Source of the DNA: Escherichia coli
GTDB taxonomy: Bacteria; Pseudomonadota; Gammaproteobacteria; Enterobacterales; Enterobacteriaceae
Length of the DNA stretch: 64,000 nucleotides
Strand: one strand, 5' to 3'
NCBI RefSeq assembly: GCF_050320075.1
Contig: NZ_CP190018.1
The notes under the pieces were generated by a model. It was not told where the DNA came from. It worked only from the letters and a program-made list of their open reading frames with translations, and ran no database searches. The position numbers were made by a program, and so were the translations under genes. This document shows, one piece after another, positions 17,604 to 62,576 of the stretch. Each line of letters begins with the position of its first letter. Within the stretch, counting starts at the first letter, position 1.

Positions 17604-18926
17604 GTGCAACAGATAGCCCGCTCTGTCGCCCTGGCGTTTAATAATTTACCGCGACCACACCGCGTTATGTTGGGGTCGCTCACCGTTCTTACTCTGGCCG
17701 TCGCTGTCTGGCGGCCCTATGTTTATCACCGCGATGCCACGCCAATTGTCAAAACCATTGAGCTGGAACAGAACGAAATTCGTTCGCTCTTACCTGAAGC
17801 CAGTGAGCCGATTGATCAAGCTGCACAAGAAGATGAAGCCATTCCCCAGGATGAACTGGATGACAAAATCGCCGGTGAAGCGGGCGTGCATGAATATGTT
17901 GTTTCCACTGGCGATACGCTAAGCAGCATTCTCAATCAGTATGGTATTGATATGGGTGATATCACCCAACTGGCTGCTGCCGACAAAGAATTGCGTAACC
18001 TGAAAATCGGTCAACAACTCTCCTGGACATTAACCGCGGACGGCGAACTGCAGCGCCTCACCTGGGAAGTGTCTCGTCGTGAAACCCGAACCTATGACCG
18101 TACTGCCGCTAACGGTTTTAAAATGACCAGCGAAATGCAGCAAGGAGAGTGGGTCAACAATCTGCTGAAAGGTACCGTCGGGGGAAGCTTTGTTGCCAGC
18201 GCCAGAAACGCCGGTTTAACCAGCGCCGAAGTGAGCGCAGTGATTAAAGCCATGCAGTGGCAAATGGATTTCCGCAAACTGAAAAAAGGCGATGAATTTG
18301 CGGTGTTAATGTCACGAGAAATGCTTGATGGTAAACGTGAGCAAAGCCAACTGCTGGGCGTACGTTTGCGTTCAGAAGGTAAAGATTATTACGCAATCCG
18401 CGCTGAAGATGGCAAATTCTATGATCGTAACGGTACTGGTCTGGCGAAAGGATTCTTGCGATTCCCGACGGCGAAACAGTTCCGTATCTCGTCTAACTTT
18501 AACCCGCGTCGTACTAATCCGGTGACTGGTCGTGTTGCGCCACACAGAGGTGTTGATTTCGCCATGCCACAGGGTACGCCGGTGCTTTCAGTGGGTGACG
18601 GTGAAGTGGTGGTTGCCAAACGCAGTGGCGCAGCAGGTTATTATGTGGCTATTCGTCATGGTCGCAGCTACACCACGCGTTATATGCACTTGCGCAAGAT
18701 TCTGGTGAAACCGGGACAGAAGGTGAAACGTGGCGACCGTATCGCGCTTTCCGGTAATACCGGACGTTCAACCGGGCCGCATCTGCACTATGAAGTATGG
18801 ATAAACCAGCAGGCCGTAAACCCGCTGACGGCAAAACTGCCGCGTACCGAAGGGCTGACCGGCTCCGATCGTCGCGAATTCCTGGCGCAGGCCAAAGAGA
18901 TTGTGCCGCAGCTACGGTTTGATTAA
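17604..18926 (+). CDS. mepM: murein DD-endopeptidase MepM (M23 peptidase with LysM domain)
   Basis: 440-aa ORF with a LysM segment and M23 motifs ([15 protein letters not shown]). Confidence 0.9.
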
Positions 18927-22588: not shown

Positions 22589-22925
22589 GATGTAAAGAGA
22601 CTCACGGGTAATGACGATTTCCGCACTGAAAGAAATCGAAATGCAGTTTTGTCAGATATTACGCCTGTGTGCTGTGTTAATGACAAAAGCAGATAAAAAA
22701 GTTGTTATTTTTTTTCATAACATGATCAGTGTCAGATTTTTACCCAATGGAAAACGATGATTTTTTTATCAGTTTTGCCGCACTTTGCGCGCTTTTACCG
22801 TAATCGCACGGGTGGATAAGCGTTTACAGTTTTCGCAAGCTCGTAAAAGCAGTACAGTGCACCGTAAGAAAATTACAAGTATACCCTGGCTTAAGTACCG
22901 GGATAGTTAACTTAAGGAGAATGAC

Positions 22926-24401
22926 ATGGCGGTAACGCAAACAGCCCAGGCCTGTGACCTGGTCATTTTCGGCGCGAAAGGCGACCTTGCGCGTCGTAAA
23001 TTGCTGCCTTCCCTGTATCAACTGGAAAAAGCCGGTCAGCTCAACCCGGACACCCGGATTATCGGCGTAGGGCGTGCTGACTGGGATAAAGCGGCTTATA
23101 CCAAAGTTGTCCGCGAGGCGCTCGAAACTTTCATGAAAGAAACCATTGATGAAGGTTTATGGGACACCCTGAGTGCACGTCTGGATTTTTGTAATCTCGA
23201 TGTCAATGACACTGCTGCATTCAGCCGTCTCGGCGCGATGCTGGATCAAAAAAATCGTATCACCATTAACTACTTTGCCATGCCGCCCAGCACTTTTGGC
23301 GCAATTTGCAAAGGGCTTGGCGAGGCAAAACTGAATGCTAAACCGGCACGCGTAGTCATGGAGAAACCGCTGGGGACGTCGCTGGCGACCTCGCAGGAAA
23401 TCAACGATCAGGTTGGCGAATACTTCGAGGAGTGCCAGGTTTACCGTATCGACCACTATCTTGGTAAAGAAACGGTGCTGAACCTGTTGGCGCTGCGTTT
23501 TGCTAACTCTCTGTTTGTGAACAACTGGGACAATCGCACCATCGATCATGTTGAGATTACCGTGGCAGAAGAAGTGGGGATCGAAGGGCGCTGGGGCTAT
23601 TTTGATAAAGCCGGTCAGATGCGCGACATGATCCAGAACCACCTGCTGCAAATTCTTTGCATGATTGCGATGTCTCCGCCGTCTGACCTGAGTGCAGACA
23701 GCATCCGCGATGAAAAAGTGAAAGTACTGAAGTCTCTGCGCCGTATTGACCGCTCCAACGTACGCGAAAAAACCGTACGCGGGCAATATACTGCGGGCTT
23801 CGCCCAGGGCAAAAAAGTGCCGGGATATCTGGAAGAAGAGGGCGCGAACAAGAGCAGCAATACAGAAACCTTCGTGGCGATCCGCGTCGACATTGATAAC
23901 TGGCGCTGGGCCGGTGTGCCATTCTACCTGCGTACTGGTAAACGTCTGCCGACCAAATGCTCTGAAGTCGTGGTCTATTTCAAAACACCTGAACTGAATC
24001 TGTTTAAAGAGTCGTGGCAGGATCTACCGCAAAATAAACTGACTATCCGTCTGCAACCTGATGAAGGCGTGGATATCCAGGTACTGAATAAAGTTCCTGG
24101 CCTTGACCACAAACATAACCTGCAAATCACCAAGCTGGACCTGAGCTATTCAGAAACCTTTAATCAGACGCATCTGGCGGATGCCTATGAACGTCTGCTG
24201 CTGGAAACCATGCGTGGTATTCAGGCACTGTTTGTTCGTCGTGATGAAGTGGAAGAAGCCTGGAAATGGGTAGACTCCATTACTGAGGCGTGGGCGATGG
24301 ACAATGATGCGCCGAAACCGTATCAGGCCGGAACCTGGGGACCCGTTGCCTCGGTGGCAATGATTACCCGTGATGGTCGTTCCTGGAATGAGTTTGAGTA
24401 A
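22926..24401 (+). CDS. zwf: glucose-6-phosphate 1-dehydrogenase
   Basis: [20 protein letters not shown]-binding motif and RIDHYLGKE active-site motif. Confidence 0.95.
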
Positions 24402-24425
24402 TATCTGCGCTTATCCTTTATGGTT

Positions 24426-24441
24426 ATTTTACCGGTAACAT
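24426..24441. promoter_or_regulatory. GntR-type operator candidate upstream of edd
   Basis: Perfect palindrome TTACCGGTAA (24429-24438) within TTTTACCGGTAACAT, resembling the recalled GntR operator consensus. Confidence 0.4.
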
Positions 24442-24635
24442 GATCTTGCACAGATTGTAGAACAATTTTTACACTTTCAGGCCTCGTGCGGATTCACCCA
24501 CGAGGCTTTTTTTATTACACTGACTGAAACGTTTTTGCCCTATGAGCTCCGGTTACAGGCGTTTCAGTCATAAATCCTCTGAATGAAGCGCGTTGTGAAT
24601 CATCCTGCTCTGACAACTCAATTTCAGGAGCCTTT

Positions 24636-26447
24636 ATGAATCCACAATTGTTACGCGTAACAAATCGAATCATTGAACGTTCGCGCGAGACTCGCTCTGC
24701 TTACCTCGCCCGGATAGAACAAGCGAAAACTTCGACCGTTCATCGTTCGCAGTTGGCATGTGGTAACCTGGCACACGGTTTCGCTGCCTGCCAGCCAGAA
24801 GACAAAGCCTCTTTGAAAAGCATGTTGCGTAACAATATCGCCATCATCACCTCCTATAACGACATGCTCTCCGCGCACCAGCCTTATGAACACTATCCAG
24901 AAATCATTCGTAAAGCCCTGCATGAAGCAAATGCGGTTGGTCAGGTTGCGGGCGGTGTTCCGGCGATGTGTGATGGTGTCACCCAGGGGCAGGATGGAAT
25001 GGAATTGTCGCTGTTAAGCCGCGAAGTGATTGCGATGTCTGCGGCGGTGGGGTTGTCCCATAACATGTTTGATGGTGCGCTGTTCCTCGGAGTGTGCGAC
25101 AAGATTGTTCCGGGTCTGACTATGGCAGCCCTGTCGTTTGGGCATTTGCCTGCGGTGTTTGTGCCGTCTGGACCGATGGCAAGCGGTTTGCCAAATAAAG
25201 AAAAAGTGCGTATTCGCCAGCTTTATGCCGAAGGTAAAGTGGACCGCATGGCATTACTGGAGTCAGAAGCCGCGTCTTATCATGCGCCGGGAACATGTAC
25301 TTTCTACGGTACTGCCAACACCAACCAGATGGTGGTGGAGTTTATGGGGATGCAGTTGCCAGGCTCTTCTTTTGTTCATCCGGATTCTCCGCTGCGCGAT
25401 GCTTTGACCGCAGCCGCTGCGCGCCAGGTTACACGCATGACCGGTAATGGTAATGAATGGATGCCGATCGGTAAGATGATCGATGAGAAAGTGGTGGTGA
25501 ACGGTATCGTTGCACTGCTGGCGACCGGTGGTTCCACTAACCACACCATGCACCTGGTGGCGATGGCTCGCGCGGCCGGTATTCAGATTAACTGGGATGA
25601 CTTCTCTGACCTTTCTGATGTTGTACCGCTGATGGCACGTCTCTACCCGAACGGTCCGGCCGATATTAACCACTTCCAGGCGGCAGGTGGCGTACCGGTT
25701 CTGGTGCGTGAACTGCTCAAAGCAGGCCTGCTGCATGAAGATGTCAATACGGTGGCTGGTTTTGGTCTGTCTCGTTATACCCTTGAACCATGGCTGAATA
25801 ATGGTGAACTGGACTGGCGGGAAGGGGCGGAAAAATCACTCGACAGCAATGTGATCGCTTCCTTCGAACAACCTTTCTCTCATCATGGTGGGACAAAAGT
25901 GTTAAGCGGTAACCTGGGCCGTGCGGTTATGAAAACCTCTGCCGTGCCGGTTGAGAACCAGGTGATTGAAGCGCCTGCGGTTGTTTTTGAAAGCCAGCAT
26001 GACGTTATGCCGGCTTTTGAAGCGGGTTTGCTGGACCGCGATTGTGTCGTTGTTGTCCGTCATCAGGGGCCAAAAGCGAACGGAATGCCAGAATTACATA
26101 AACTCATGCCGCCACTTGGTGTATTATTGGACCGGTGTTTCAAAATTGCGTTAGTTACTGATGGACGACTCTCCGGCGCTTCAGGTAAAGTGCCGTCAGC
26201 TATCCACGTAACACCAGAAGCCTACGATGGCGGGCTGCTGGCAAAAGTGCGCGACGGGGACATCATTCGTGTGAATGGACAGACAGGCGAACTGACGCTG
26301 CTGGTAGACGAAGCGGAACTGGCTGCTCGCGAACCACACATTCCTGACCTGAGCGCGTCACGCGTGGGAACAGGACGTGAATTATTCAGCGCCTTGCGTG
26401 AAAAACTGTCCGGTGCCGAACAGGGCGCAACCTGTATCACTTTTTAA
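24636..26447 (+). CDS. edd: phosphogluconate dehydratase
   Basis: 603-aa ILVD/EDD-family dehydratase. Confidence 0.95.
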
Positions 26448-26483: not shown

Positions 26484-27125
26484 ATGAAAAACTGGAAAAC
26501 AAGTGCAGAATCAATCCTGACCACCGGCCCGGTTGTACCGGTTATCGTGGTAAAAAAACTGGAACACGCGGTGCCGATGGCTAAAGCGTTGGTTGCTGGT
26601 GGGGTGCGCGTTCTGGAAGTGACTCTGCGTACCGAGTGTGCAGTTGACGCTATCCGTGCTATCGCCAAAGAAGTGCCTGAAGCGATTGTGGGTGCCGGTA
26701 CGGTGCTGAATCCACAGCAGCTGGCAGAAGTCACCGAAGCGGGTGCACAGTTCGCAATTAGCCCGGGTCTGACCGAGCCGCTGCTGAAGGCTGCTACCGA
26801 AGGGACTATTCCTCTGATTCCGGGGATCAGCACTGTTTCCGAACTGATGCTGGGTATGGACTACGGTTTGAAAGAGTTCAAATTCTTCCCGGCTGAAGCT
26901 AACGGCGGTGTGAAAGCCCTGCAGGCGATCGCGGGTCCGTTCTCCCAGGTCCGTTTCTGCCCGACGGGTGGTATTTCTCCGGCTAACTACCGTGACTACC
27001 TGGCGCTGAAAAGCGTGCTGTGCATCGGTGGTTCCTGGCTGGTTCCGGCAGATGCGCTGGAAGCGGGCGATTACGACCGCATTACTAAGCTGGCGCGTGA
27101 AGCTGTAGAAGGCGCTAAGCTGTAA
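26484..27125 (+). CDS. eda: KHG/KDPG aldolase
   Basis: 213-aa [26 protein letters not shown]. Confidence 0.95.
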
Positions 27126-39339: not shown

Positions 39340-40779
39340 TCAGGCGTTACCGGTAAAAAGTTTCCCATCGCGCACCAGTTCACGCGGGTAGCTGTTTTTC
39401 AGTCGCGAACCAATTCGTTTGGCTAAACCAATCGGCTGATGCTGGAAAGTAACCAATACATCATCCGCTACTGGCGCGGCTTGCGGGTAAACATCGCGCC
39501 CGCGATACCACTCCTCCGCTTCCTGCGCCGTTAGTTCAAAAGCGTTCACATTGTCGGGTGAGGCAAGGGCAATAACCGCTTCATGCTGCCAGCGATAACC
39601 TTTGTTATGCGTTTCGGCAAGTTTAATCCCCAGGCGAGAAAATCGGACTTTACCGATCAGGGCTTCAATGCCCACCGGGAACAACCACAGTTCTTTGTCA
39701 CGCTGCCAGAGGCGCAGGTTTTCATCCCAGTTTAAGCCAACACCTGCAGCCGCCTGACGAATTTGTCCAGCTTCGCGATCTTTCACCGGGCTAAACGGGA
39801 AATTGCCCACTTTGTATTTTGGGGCGGGTAAGACGGGGATCGCCTGAGTTTTACGCAGACGAGCAACGAAGAAGCCTTCGCAGTCGTAAATTTGTGGGAA
39901 AACATGCAAAAAGCCTTCTTCGGTCAGCGCCTTATTTGCACCAGGGAAGAGATCGCCAAGCGGTAAAAACTCTACTGCATCGGGGTAAGTCTCTTTAAGC
40001 CACCGGCAGACGGCTTCATTTTCTTCCTGGTTTAAGGTACAGGTCGAGTAAACCAGCGTACCGCCAGGGCGTAATGCATGAAAGGCGCTGTCGATCAGTT
40101 CCCGTTGGGTAGCTGCGATTTCCTGATTGCTTTCTGGTGACCAGTTTTTTAGCGCATCGGGATCTTTACGCACCACGCCTTCGCCGGAGCAGGGAGCGTC
40201 CAGCAAAATGGCATCGAACATTTCTGGCACTGCCGCACCAAATACACGGCCATCAAAATGCGTGAGCGCAACATTACGGATGCCACAGCGGCTGATATTG
40301 GCATGTAACACTTTTACCCGACTGGCGGAAAACTCATTGGCAAGGATAGCCCCTTCGTTATTCATCCGCGCGGCAATTTGCGTCGTTTTGGAGCCTGGCG
40401 CAGCAGCGACATCCATCACCCGCTGTGGTGCATTACCGTCAGCAAACAAGGCGGCAACGGGCAACATTGAACTGGCTTCCTGAATATAAAACAGGCCGCT
40501 TAAATGCTCGGCGGTACTACCCAATGGCAATGCATCTTCATCGTCGCGTTCAATCCAGAAACCTTCTTCACACCACGGAATTGGCGTAAGCGTCCAGCCA
40601 TAAGAGGCGGTTAATTGCAGGAAATCAGCAACGGAGATTTTCAGCGTATTAACGCGAATGCTGCGGCGCAACGGGCGCTGACAGGCGGCAAGAAAATCAT
40701 CAAAAGAGAGCGTCGAAGGCATCGCTTCGCGCATTTGCGTCAGAAAGGCGTCCGGGAAATAAACGGTGTGTTGGGCCAC
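39340..40779 (-). CDS. rsmF: 16S rRNA m5C1407 methyltransferase
   Basis: NOL1/NOP2/Sun-family SAM-dependent methyltransferase with the DAPCSGEG motif; about 479 aa with a GTG start. Confidence 0.9.
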
Positions 40780-40858
40780 GAGCATATACCACTGGCAAAA
40801 AAACAGGCGCGCAGTTTAGCATAAACGCTCCGGCGCAGGCACGCCGGAGCAGTGGGCA

Positions 40859-45371: not shown

Positions 45372-45467
45372 TCAACGGATAACGTAGCATTTACTGATAG
45401 CGTCATTATAATGACGCCTGTTCATGCCTGCGCTTGTTGGCTACGTCCGTTGTAATCAGGAAATTTC

Positions 45468-60977: not shown

Positions 60978-62576
60978 TTAACGTAACGGCATAATGGGCG
61001 TGATATGTCCATTATGCCGGGCGGGCGGCGGTTGGCTGCCCGCCAGCCATTTGGGAAAATCACGTAGCGGCATCGGCTGTGCGTACAAATACCCTTGCAA
61101 AATATGCACGCCATGACGGCGCAAATACTTCGCCTGTTCTTGCGTTTCCACGCCCTCCGCCACCAGTTCAATATTCAGTCTTTGCCCCAGCGCGATGATG
61201 ATATCGGTCACCGTCGAGTTAACCGCGTCAGAACCTATAGCTGCGGTAAATGACTTATCAATTTTCAGCACGTCAGGACGTAATGTTTCAAGCCAGGAAA
61301 ATGAACTATTGCCTGTGCCGAAGTCATCAATCGCCAGTTTGACGTTTTTACGATGCAGCTCGCGGGCAATCCGATAATCAACATCCAGTAAGGCATCGCG
61401 TTCGGTGATTTCGAGGATCAGTTGCTGAATCGGGTGAGCGCTAAACCAGTACTGATTGAGATCTTTTATCAGCACACCACGGCGAAAATGACTGGGTGCG
61501 ACGTTAATGCCAACATGAAACTGACTACTCATTGGGAAAACATGCCGCTGACGGATGGTTTCTGCCATCACATAGCGGGTCAGTGGCACAATTAAATGAT
61601 GTTCTTCCGCGATAGGAATAAACACATCCGGTGAAATCCAGCCCTGACGTGGATTGTTCCAGCGCAGCAAAATCTCTACAACAATACATTGCTGGCTGCG
61701 CGCATTAAGCAAAGGCTGGCAGAACAATTCGAACTCATGTTGCGCCAGGCCCAGATTGATTTCGCGGGAAAAACTCATCCGGTAAGCGGTCGCCAGCCAG
61801 GCGATATAGCCCACCAGTAAACTTAGCAGCACCGCCAGCGGTAATTGTGTTGGAAGATAGTGCCATGCCAGCGCCGTAGCCCCCGGACCATTAACGTTAA
61901 TGGTAAAAGGAAAGCGTTGCGAAGAAACCTGATAGTTTTCATTGTCTTCAGGTTGCGGAAGGGAATCTACCAGCCCATTACCATAGAGCAAATGCCGTTT
62001 GTCCACCGTCAGGCTGGCGCTACTGATTTGCGGCAGTTGTGGCTCAAGGAGCATTGCCGTCAGTAAGTCGATGTTAATCATCTCCATGACCCCAGCATTG
62101 CTACTGCCCGCTGCAGGTGTCCATTGAATCAAAACCGGACTGCCTTTAATCAGGGCACGGTCGATCGTCAGGCGTAAAAGTGGTTGCGGTGCAGGAAGTT
62201 CAGCCAGAATGTCCACGACGGGCACATTGCGATAACCAAAAATGCTGGAGCAATAAAGTGTGCCGTCTTGCACCAGGCCAATGGATCGCACAGTTTGGAG
62301 TTTTGCCGCCTGTTTACGTAATGGCAAATGGGCGACAGAGCAGGGCAGACCAATCAGCGGAAGCAAGACTTCGCTACCTGCCTGTAGGGGAAGCAGTACT
62401 TTATCTAATTCCTCTACAGCGTGATTGGCGAATTGTACTACCCGTTGTTGATTTAAGTTACGCTGTGAAATAAATCGCACGCTCAGGGTCGAAGCGAGCG
62501 TAACGAGTGCGCAAATCGTACAAACAATCATTCGATTACGGCGATAGGTTTTAATGATCCGTTGTGCTTTTTGCAT
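60978..62576 (-). CDS. pdeD: EAL-domain c-di-GMP phosphodiesterase
   Basis: N-terminal membrane/periplasmic sensor and C-terminal EAL domain (EITE...DDFGTG); trimmed to MQKAQRIIKTYRRNRM. Confidence 0.85.
   Translation of the reverse strand: MQKAQRIIKTYRRNRMIVCTICALVTLASTLSVRFISQRNLNQQRVVQFANHAVEELDKVLLPLQAGSEVLLPLIGLPCSVAHLPLRKQAAKLQTVRSIGLVQDGTLYCSSIFGYRNVPVVDILAELPAPQPLLRLTIDRALIKGSPVLIQWTPAAGSSNAGVMEMINIDLLTAMLLEPQLPQISSASLTVDKRHLLYGNGLVDSLPQPEDNENYQVSSQRFPFTINVNGPGATALAWHYLPTQLPLAVLLSLLVGYIAWLATAYRMSFSREINLGLAQHEFELFCQPLLNARSQQCIVVEILLRWNNPRQGWISPDVFIPIAEEHHLIVPLTRYVMAETIRQRHVFPMSSQFHVGINVAPSHFRRGVLIKDLNQYWFSAHPIQQLILEITERDALLDVDYRIARELHRKNVKLAIDDFGTGNSSFSWLETLRPDVLKIDKSFTAAIGSDAVNSTVTDIIIALGQRLNIELVAEGVETQEQAKYLRRHGVHILQGYLYAQPMPLRDFPKWLAGSQPPPARHNGHITPIMPLR

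Follow-up and report, generated by a model that had tools for sequence, protein, structure and literature searches.

What regulatory signals are carried by the short spacer between zwf and edd of Escherichia coli, and how might they act on the two neighbouring transcripts? The 64,000-nucleotide stretch of DNA analysed here (hereafter, the window) comprises the E. coli zwf-edd-eda locus. The zwf CDS (glucose-6-phosphate dehydrogenase; 22926..24401, + strand), taken from the list of open reading frames, is 100% identical to E. coli DNA annotated as zwf and ends with a stop codon at 24399-24401. It is followed on the + strand by edd (phosphogluconate dehydratase; 24636..26447, with the ATG at 24636) and eda (26484-27125). 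A ribosome-binding site, AGGAG (24626..24630, + strand), conserved as (A/G)GGAG, precedes the edd ATG by 6 nt. The intervening 234-bp spacer differs from that of K-12 MG1655 by two SNPs and was found in 5,425 of 5,426 complete E. coli genomes (window position w equals minus-strand position 1959240 - w of MG1655).

For comparison, 80 Edd-encoding loci were taken from species-representative genomes. In 60 of these, all from Enterobacteriaceae, zwf is located 218-380 bp upstream of edd, and these loci together with that of the window yielded 61 aligned zwf-edd junctions. Of the remaining 20 loci, from Enterobacterales, 19 lack zwf in the vicinity of edd, and one (L071) has it 760 bp upstream.

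The junction is real and conserved, ordinary and already known. Control of the edd-eda promoter P1 by GntR, the P1 hexamers, the Cra site and the zwf terminator are established knowledge for the model locus, and the window represents that locus, with no difference in kind. P1 and its control by GntR and Cra have reportedly been described for E. coli, and both are entered in EcoCyc and RegulonDB. Within 240 bp, the junction accommodates a terminator, a promoter and three repressor sites. Working from the sequence alone, the initial annotation recovered two genuine elements of this textbook locus, a palindrome and a hairpin, and missed the stronger of two operators (O2, 24648-24663), a promoter nested in the terminator and a Cra box.

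The predicted zwf terminator and the promoter P1

The hairpin followed by a T-run that had been noted between zwf and edd, and that was thought possibly to terminate zwf transcription, stands up to closer analysis. Its arms, GCCTCGTG (24481-24488) and CACGAGGC (24499-24506), are followed by seven T (24507-24513), so that the core of the structure spans 24481-24513 within a predicted terminator at 24479..24513 (+ strand). In the predicted fold, 24480-24491 pairs with 24497-24507, with C24489 bulged and a loop of AUUCA; the T-run is present on the + strand only, with none on the opposite strand. The fold has a free energy of -18.9 kcal/mol (z = -6.7), and none of 200 shuffled sequences folded as well. 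Across 48 distinct sequences, 90.4% of the cells are paired, compared to 43-66% when the partner is slid, and compensatory changes were found in six of the ten pairs, with the observed covariation reached by none of 500 shuffles. These compensatory changes show that the hairpin is a genuine RNA structure. Given the anatomy of an intrinsic terminator, namely, a G+C-rich stem, a U-tract, a position 80-112 nt downstream of the zwf stop codon and pairing retained in evolution, the hairpin is most likely the intrinsic terminator of zwf.

With canonical Rho-independent terminators, the zwf hairpin shares a G+C-rich stem of 10-12 bp, a short loop, the U7 tract and compensatory evolution of the stem. 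Unlike in canonical terminators, however, its loop is as conserved as the stem is variable, apparently because the loop doubles as the -35 element of the next promoter. A promoter and terminator scan of the window flagged neither the hairpin nor P1. The terminator scan was limited to loops of 3-8 nt and allowed no bulges, whereas the hairpin has a 10-nt gap between its arms and a bulged inner extension of 2 bp; the loop-size rule is the most likely reason why it was missed. Neither gene is listed in the curated Term-seq tables from Adams et al. (2021) or in the TERMITe supplements, and an Rfam search at the hairpin returned only a chance hit (E = 0.59).

The -35 element of edd-eda P1, TTCACC (24493..24498, + strand), lies within the terminator loop and inner stem, and the -10 element, TACACT (24516..24521, + strand), follows after 17 bp, directly behind the T-run. 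The loop GGATTCACC is nearly invariant across the junctions, which is unusual for a terminator loop. TACACT is likewise invariant, except for replacement by TATACT or TAAACT, both nearer to the consensus, and the distance between the two hexamers is fixed at 17-18 bp. The same TTCACC-17-TACACT is printed as the edd-eda promoter at an RpoD-holoenzyme SELEX peak in the zwf-edd spacer (Shimada et al. 2014, PMC3946193); the polymerase binds in this spacer, and the string represents the best promoter there. Because its match to the consensus is 4/6 + 4/6, that is, 8/12, P1 fell under the threshold of 9/12 used in our scan. From the position of the -10 element, transcription would start at about 24528 (24526..24530, + strand), so that the 5' UTR would measure about 108 nt. 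Thus positioned, the edd mRNA should begin approximately 15 nt downstream of the hairpin and lack it. With the -35 in the loop and the -10 behind the T-run, both conserved, the hairpin would lie upstream of the edd transcript, and the suggestion that it might act as a leader structure for edd is not supported.

The only edd starts listed by Kim et al. (2012) for glucose-grown cells are weak ones inside zwf, as is expected of a repressed promoter. These starts (3-6 reads; NC_000913.2 positions 1933223, 1933034 and 1932979) correspond to window positions of about 24041, 24230 and 24285 on the + strand, in the 3' part of zwf.

It is very unlikely that the hairpin is an edd 5' leader or attenuator, with P1 upstream and transcription reading through the hairpin to edd; the promoters that this would require, namely, one formed by the TAACAT half of O1 (the upstream operator described below) or TTGCAC-17-TACACT at 24447-24475, are no more probable. 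TAACAT does have a -10-like TAnnnT core, TTGCAC-17-TACACT is present upstream of the hairpin in E. coli, and at gntT, where GntR sites were found by our consensus scan, one such site reportedly overlaps the promoter region. However, no conserved -35 precedes TAACAT, and the stretch between the zwf stop codon and O1 is unalignable and varies in length. The TTGCAC/TACACT pair is not conserved either: Citrobacter has TAACAC/TGCACT, and the sequences of other genera are unrelated. Sequence conservation is poor over all of 24447-24478, which separates O1 from the hairpin, indicating that there is no conserved promoter upstream of the hairpin. Furthermore, a U7 terminator of this stability would abort most transcripts, no alternative antiterminator structure is evident and no Rfam family matches, whereas the invariant loop and the hexamer behind the T-run are the promoter listed for edd-eda.

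A Cra (FruR)-type box, ACTGAAACGTTTTTGC, is predicted at 24523..24538, where it covers the likely start site and matches the Cra motif gcTGAAtCGaTTCAgc (PMC5888115) at 11 of 16 positions. A review (PMC4393010) places the Cra site of edd-eda over or behind the RNA polymerase site, and the box is located at or after that site. Its conservation is partial: the pattern (A/G)CTGAA(A/G)CGATTTTG is kept in many but not all genera, and is degenerate in Klebsiella and Enterobacter. The edd leader further contains an 11-nt perfect inverted repeat (TGACTGAAACG at 24521-24531 and CGTTTCAGTCA at 24560-24570), the second arm of which, the inverted copy of TGACTGAAACG with an inverted second CTGAAACG, reads as a second Cra-type half-site. 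The repeat is perfect only in E. coli, with CG(T/A)TTCAG at the same offset in some genera. We rejected it as an RNA hairpin, given that it displays no covariation and decays outside E. coli; it probably represents two inverted Cra-type half-sites rather than an RNA stem.

Two GntR-type operators flanking P1

The perfect 10-bp palindrome between the zwf stop codon and the edd ATG, TTACCGGTAA, is present at 24429-24438, inside TTTTACCGGTAACAT (24427-24441). Palindromy of this length is by itself at chance level and carries no statistical weight: the window contains 61 perfect 10-bp palindromes, compared to 62.7 +/- 7.2 in shuffled sequences. The particular 10-mer is expected 0.05 times in the window and was observed twice. 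The second copy (39347-39356), which falls at the 3' end of an ORF of 481 aa on the minus strand (39340-40785), was rejected as a GntR site, as its flanks do not fit the motif (11.9 bits) and it looks like a chance occurrence; there is no other copy in the window.

The resemblance of the palindrome to a GntR operator, which had been proposed from inspection, is borne out by the motif scan. The GntR consensus ATGTTA-N4-TAACAT was checked on independent MG1655 DNA. When up to two mismatches were allowed, a search of 23 kb covering gntT, gntRKU and idnK returned only five gluconate-regulon sites, two upstream of gntT, an overlapping pair ahead of gntK and a single site between idnK and idnD. The gntT, gntK and idnK promoters have been found experimentally to respond to GntR (PMC13386637). 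We built a matrix from these five MG1655 sites and scanned the approximately 64,000 positions of the window. The 16-bp site containing the palindrome, ATTTTACCGGTAACAT (O1; 24426..24441, centre 24433.5), has one mismatch to the consensus and ranks second with 17.6 bits, and first place is taken by a site inside edd, TTGTTACGCGTAACAA (O2; 24648..24663), with 21.3 bits and two mismatches to the consensus; the next unrelated site scores 12.0. O1 lies in the zwf 3' UTR, 24 bp past the stop codon and at about -94.5 relative to the presumed P1 start. Of the 60 other junctions, 59 have O1 at -197 to -220 relative to the edd ATG, and the last one has a variant with three mismatches. Both O1 and O2 match the motif, flank the edd-eda promoter and are conserved as DNA across species bearing the regulon, and the assignment of TTACCGGTAA as the core of a GntR-type operator is thus supported at the sequence level. 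Repression of edd and eda by GntR is documented, as their expression rises 11.2- and 5.1-fold, respectively, in a gntR loss-of-function strain (PMC9648032). When papers and LacI-regulon supplements were searched literally for the operator, only a primer was returned.

The left half of O1 (24426-24431) is ATTTTA rather than ATGTTA, and this imperfect form is conserved in approximately 50 of the 61 genera, which suggests an affinity tuned below the maximum rather than decay. Abutting O1 is the block ATGATCT (24440..24446), which contains GATC and is invariant in 61 of 61 junctions. The GntR motif does not explain this block: a second, overlapping GntR site such as that at gntK was rejected with a matrix score of -4. 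A CRP site in the block is weak (4.4 bits in E. coli, with a rough matrix) and was retained as a lead only. The 8-mer ACATGATC is also found in the yebK-zwf spacer (22720-22727), about 205 bp upstream of zwf, in the context TTTTTTTTCAT(T/A)ACATGATC, and is conserved across genera. The copies at 24440-24446 and 22720-22727 may represent a shared site for some factor.

O2 is a perfect 16-bp palindrome that occupies edd codons 5-10. Its centre (24655.5) corresponds to about +128 relative to P1 and is separated from that of O1 by 222 bp. Four perfect 16-bp palindromes, including O2, were observed in the window, compared to about one expected by chance; the other three are TGGGTGATATCACCCA (17953-17968), CGTCATTATAATGACG (45401-45416) and CCATTAACGTTAATGG (61888-61903). 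Among the 60 other zwf-edd junctions, O2 is present at +12 in every case, and scans of the RegPrecise type would probably list a site at this position. Across the 61 junctions, the codons covered by the operator are frozen at Leu6 (TTA, 61/61), Val8 (GTA, 61/61) and Thr9 (ACA, 59/61), codon 5 is TTG, ATG or GTG, and Arg7, which corresponds to the free N4 centre of O2, alternates between CGC and CGG. Just downstream, Arg11, Ile12 and Arg15 are each encoded by three or four different codons. By contrast, O2 is absent from edd in all 20 Enterobacterales loci outside this set, in which residue 6 is not Leu and the Val and Thr codons vary. The freezing of synonymous sites at O2, set against the variable codons of the loci that lack it, argues that O2 has been selected as DNA and has shaped the N-terminus of Edd.

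That O2 is no operator, its conservation resulting from the protein sequence and from the usual bias towards rare, A/T-rich codons at the beginning of genes, is scarcely credible. The site does sit in coding sequence, and the first ten or so codons of bacterial genes are commonly A/T-rich. Yet the positions that are frozen coincide exactly with the 12 that the operator motif specifies, whereas the free centre (CGC/CGG) and the flanking codons vary; residue 5 changes from Leu to Met (TTG to ATG), that is, towards the operator consensus; other Enterobacterales edd genes differ here in both residues and codons; and the site combines the best GntR-matrix match in 64 kb with a perfect 16-bp palindrome. 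O2 provides an example of an intragenic operator that would constrain both codon choice and amino-acid identity. For edd promoter replacement or 5' recoding, both O1, located upstream of the zwf terminator, and O2, within codons 5-10, should be kept in mind; in a published promoter swap, both sites were retained in the homology arms (PMC4172795).

Several taxa outside the 60-junction set carry promoter-proximal GntR sites upstream of edd, either single or as overlapping tandems, at -85 to -160. These include Proteus, Rahnella, Serratia sp. Ag1, Xenorhabdus and Erwinia (L068, L078, L080, L081 and others), in which the site often consists of two overlapping copies 14-15 bp apart, with a CRP-like ATTGA-N6-TCACA approximately 60-70 bp upstream. 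Elsewhere in Serratia and Rahnella, edd comes after a permease or kinase gene and has no GntR site of its own.

Operator spacing and the possible mode of repression

Taken together, we consider it probable that the junction operates as a compact regulatory unit shared by zwf and edd-eda. Transcripts of zwf would end at the hairpin (24480-24507) and its U7 tract, acting as a strong intrinsic terminator. A sigma-70 promoter, P1, would be nested in this terminator, such that the loop provides the -35 element and the 3' arm plus the T-run form the 17-bp spacer, followed by the -10 element. The gluconate repressor GntR, a member of the LacI family, would bind O1 and O2, flanking P1 at a distance; as the most likely mechanism, cooperative binding would loop out the 222 bp that hold P1, and binding of gluconate would release the repressor. 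Finally, Cra bound to the box over the start site would add control by carbon flux. Within this scheme, we infer the exact 3' and 5' ends, the GntR occupancy of O1 and O2, and the looping.

A loop is suggested by the geometry of the two operators. O1 (-94.5) and O2 (about +128) bracket P1, both lying clear of the core promoter. O1 and the -10 element are separated by 82.5 +/- 1 bp (SD 0.44 bp across 61 sequences), although the intervening sequence diverges, compared to an SD of 32 bp for the distance from the zwf stop codon to O1. The latter variation includes an insertion of approximately 145 bp between the zwf stop codon and O1 in Buttiauxella (L040, L043 and L044), which does not alter the relative positions of O1, terminator, promoter and O2; the inserted sequence (...CTCACCCCAGTCACTTACTTGTGTAAGCTCCTGGGGATTC...) resembles an ERIC element. 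The centre-to-centre distance between O1 and O2 is 222 bp in E. coli and falls into discrete clusters across the 61 sequences, 218-223 bp (n = 48), 209-214 bp (n = 12) and 232 bp (n = 1), with none at 215-217 or 224-231 bp. The single 232-bp spacing results from a clean 10-bp insertion relative to the sister sequence. Operators flanking P1 together with clustered spacings suggest a gal/lac-type loop with helical phasing. The periodicity itself is unspecific and dominated by shared ancestry, with a resultant length of 0.63-0.72 over periods of 9-14 bp, and the comparison set contains only about 6-8 independent large indels. Furthermore, GntR is not known to possess the C-terminal tetramerisation helix of LacI; if it lacks this helix, looping would need another dimer-dimer contact. 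On balance, we judge the chances that GntR represses P1 by looping between O1 and O2 to be about even.

A less probable alternative dispenses with the loop. In this case, the two operators would act separately: O2 would act as a GntR roadblock to polymerase arriving from P1 or by read-through from zwf, and GntR at O1 would block an upstream activator or UP-element contact, for instance, at a weak CRP-like site near -82. O2 is indeed inside the transcribed region (+128), and the invariant block beside O1 (ATGATCT..CACAG) is not a GntR site. With a rough CRP matrix, the block ranks within the top 0.18%, and its distance is class-I-like; in some genera, the score reaches up to 12.9 bits. The strict spacing between O1 and the promoter (SD 0.44 bp) would suit an activator facing the polymerase equally well, and the phasing of O1 and O2 is no more than suggestive. 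However, the CRP-like score, which was obtained with this rough matrix, is only 4.4 bits in E. coli and drops to as low as -5.4 in other genera. A single LacI-family dimer is usually a leaky roadblock. Moreover, the missing O1-O2 spacings of 215-217 and 224-231 bp would go unexplained if the two sites were independent.

If GntR does act through a loop, the operator would have dictated Edd residues 5-6 and frozen codons 5-9 across the Enterobacteriaceae. In a literature search, the original mapping papers aside, we found no mention of an intragenic O2 or of a loop architecture. Taken together, it seems rather unlikely that edd-eda is controlled through a family-wide 222-bp GntR loop, extending from the zwf 3' UTR to edd and looping out a promoter embedded in a terminator, and that the intragenic operator, the loop and the nesting of the promoter have all escaped explicit description or testing.

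Likeness to gntT, gal and lac, and neighbouring sites

The closest counterpart of the edd arrangement is the gntT region, which involves the same repressor and the same 16-bp motif, with two MG1655 sites 141 bp apart. GntR is reported to control gntT through two separated operators, and looping is said to have been proposed there as well. The downstream gntT site is positioned in the leader just before the start codon, resembling O2 of edd at about +128. The upstream gntT site is reportedly promoter-proximal, whereas at edd neither site lies on the core promoter and the downstream one is intragenic.

Similar parallels can be drawn with the operators of two other LacI-family repressors, namely, gal OE/OI (GalR) and lac O1/O2/O3 (LacI). 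In both cases, two operators bracket the promoter, one of them upstream and the other in the first structural gene (galE OI and lacZ O2), and the operators need not overlap the polymerase site, as is the case at edd. The systems differ in loop size, which would be 222 bp at edd, compared to 114 bp in gal and 92 or 401 bp in lac, and the phasing at edd is only suggestive.

A HexR/YebK site at P1 was considered and rejected, the resemblance being limited to a half-site (ATTACA), which is not conserved and reads ATTTACA in half of the genera. The divergently oriented neighbour of zwf, yebK, encodes a HexR homologue. Approximately 50-60 bp upstream of the zwf ATG is the sequence CGTAAGAAAATTACA (22863-22877), which resembles, at 12 of 15 positions, the HexR-type palindrome TGTAATTAAATTACA.
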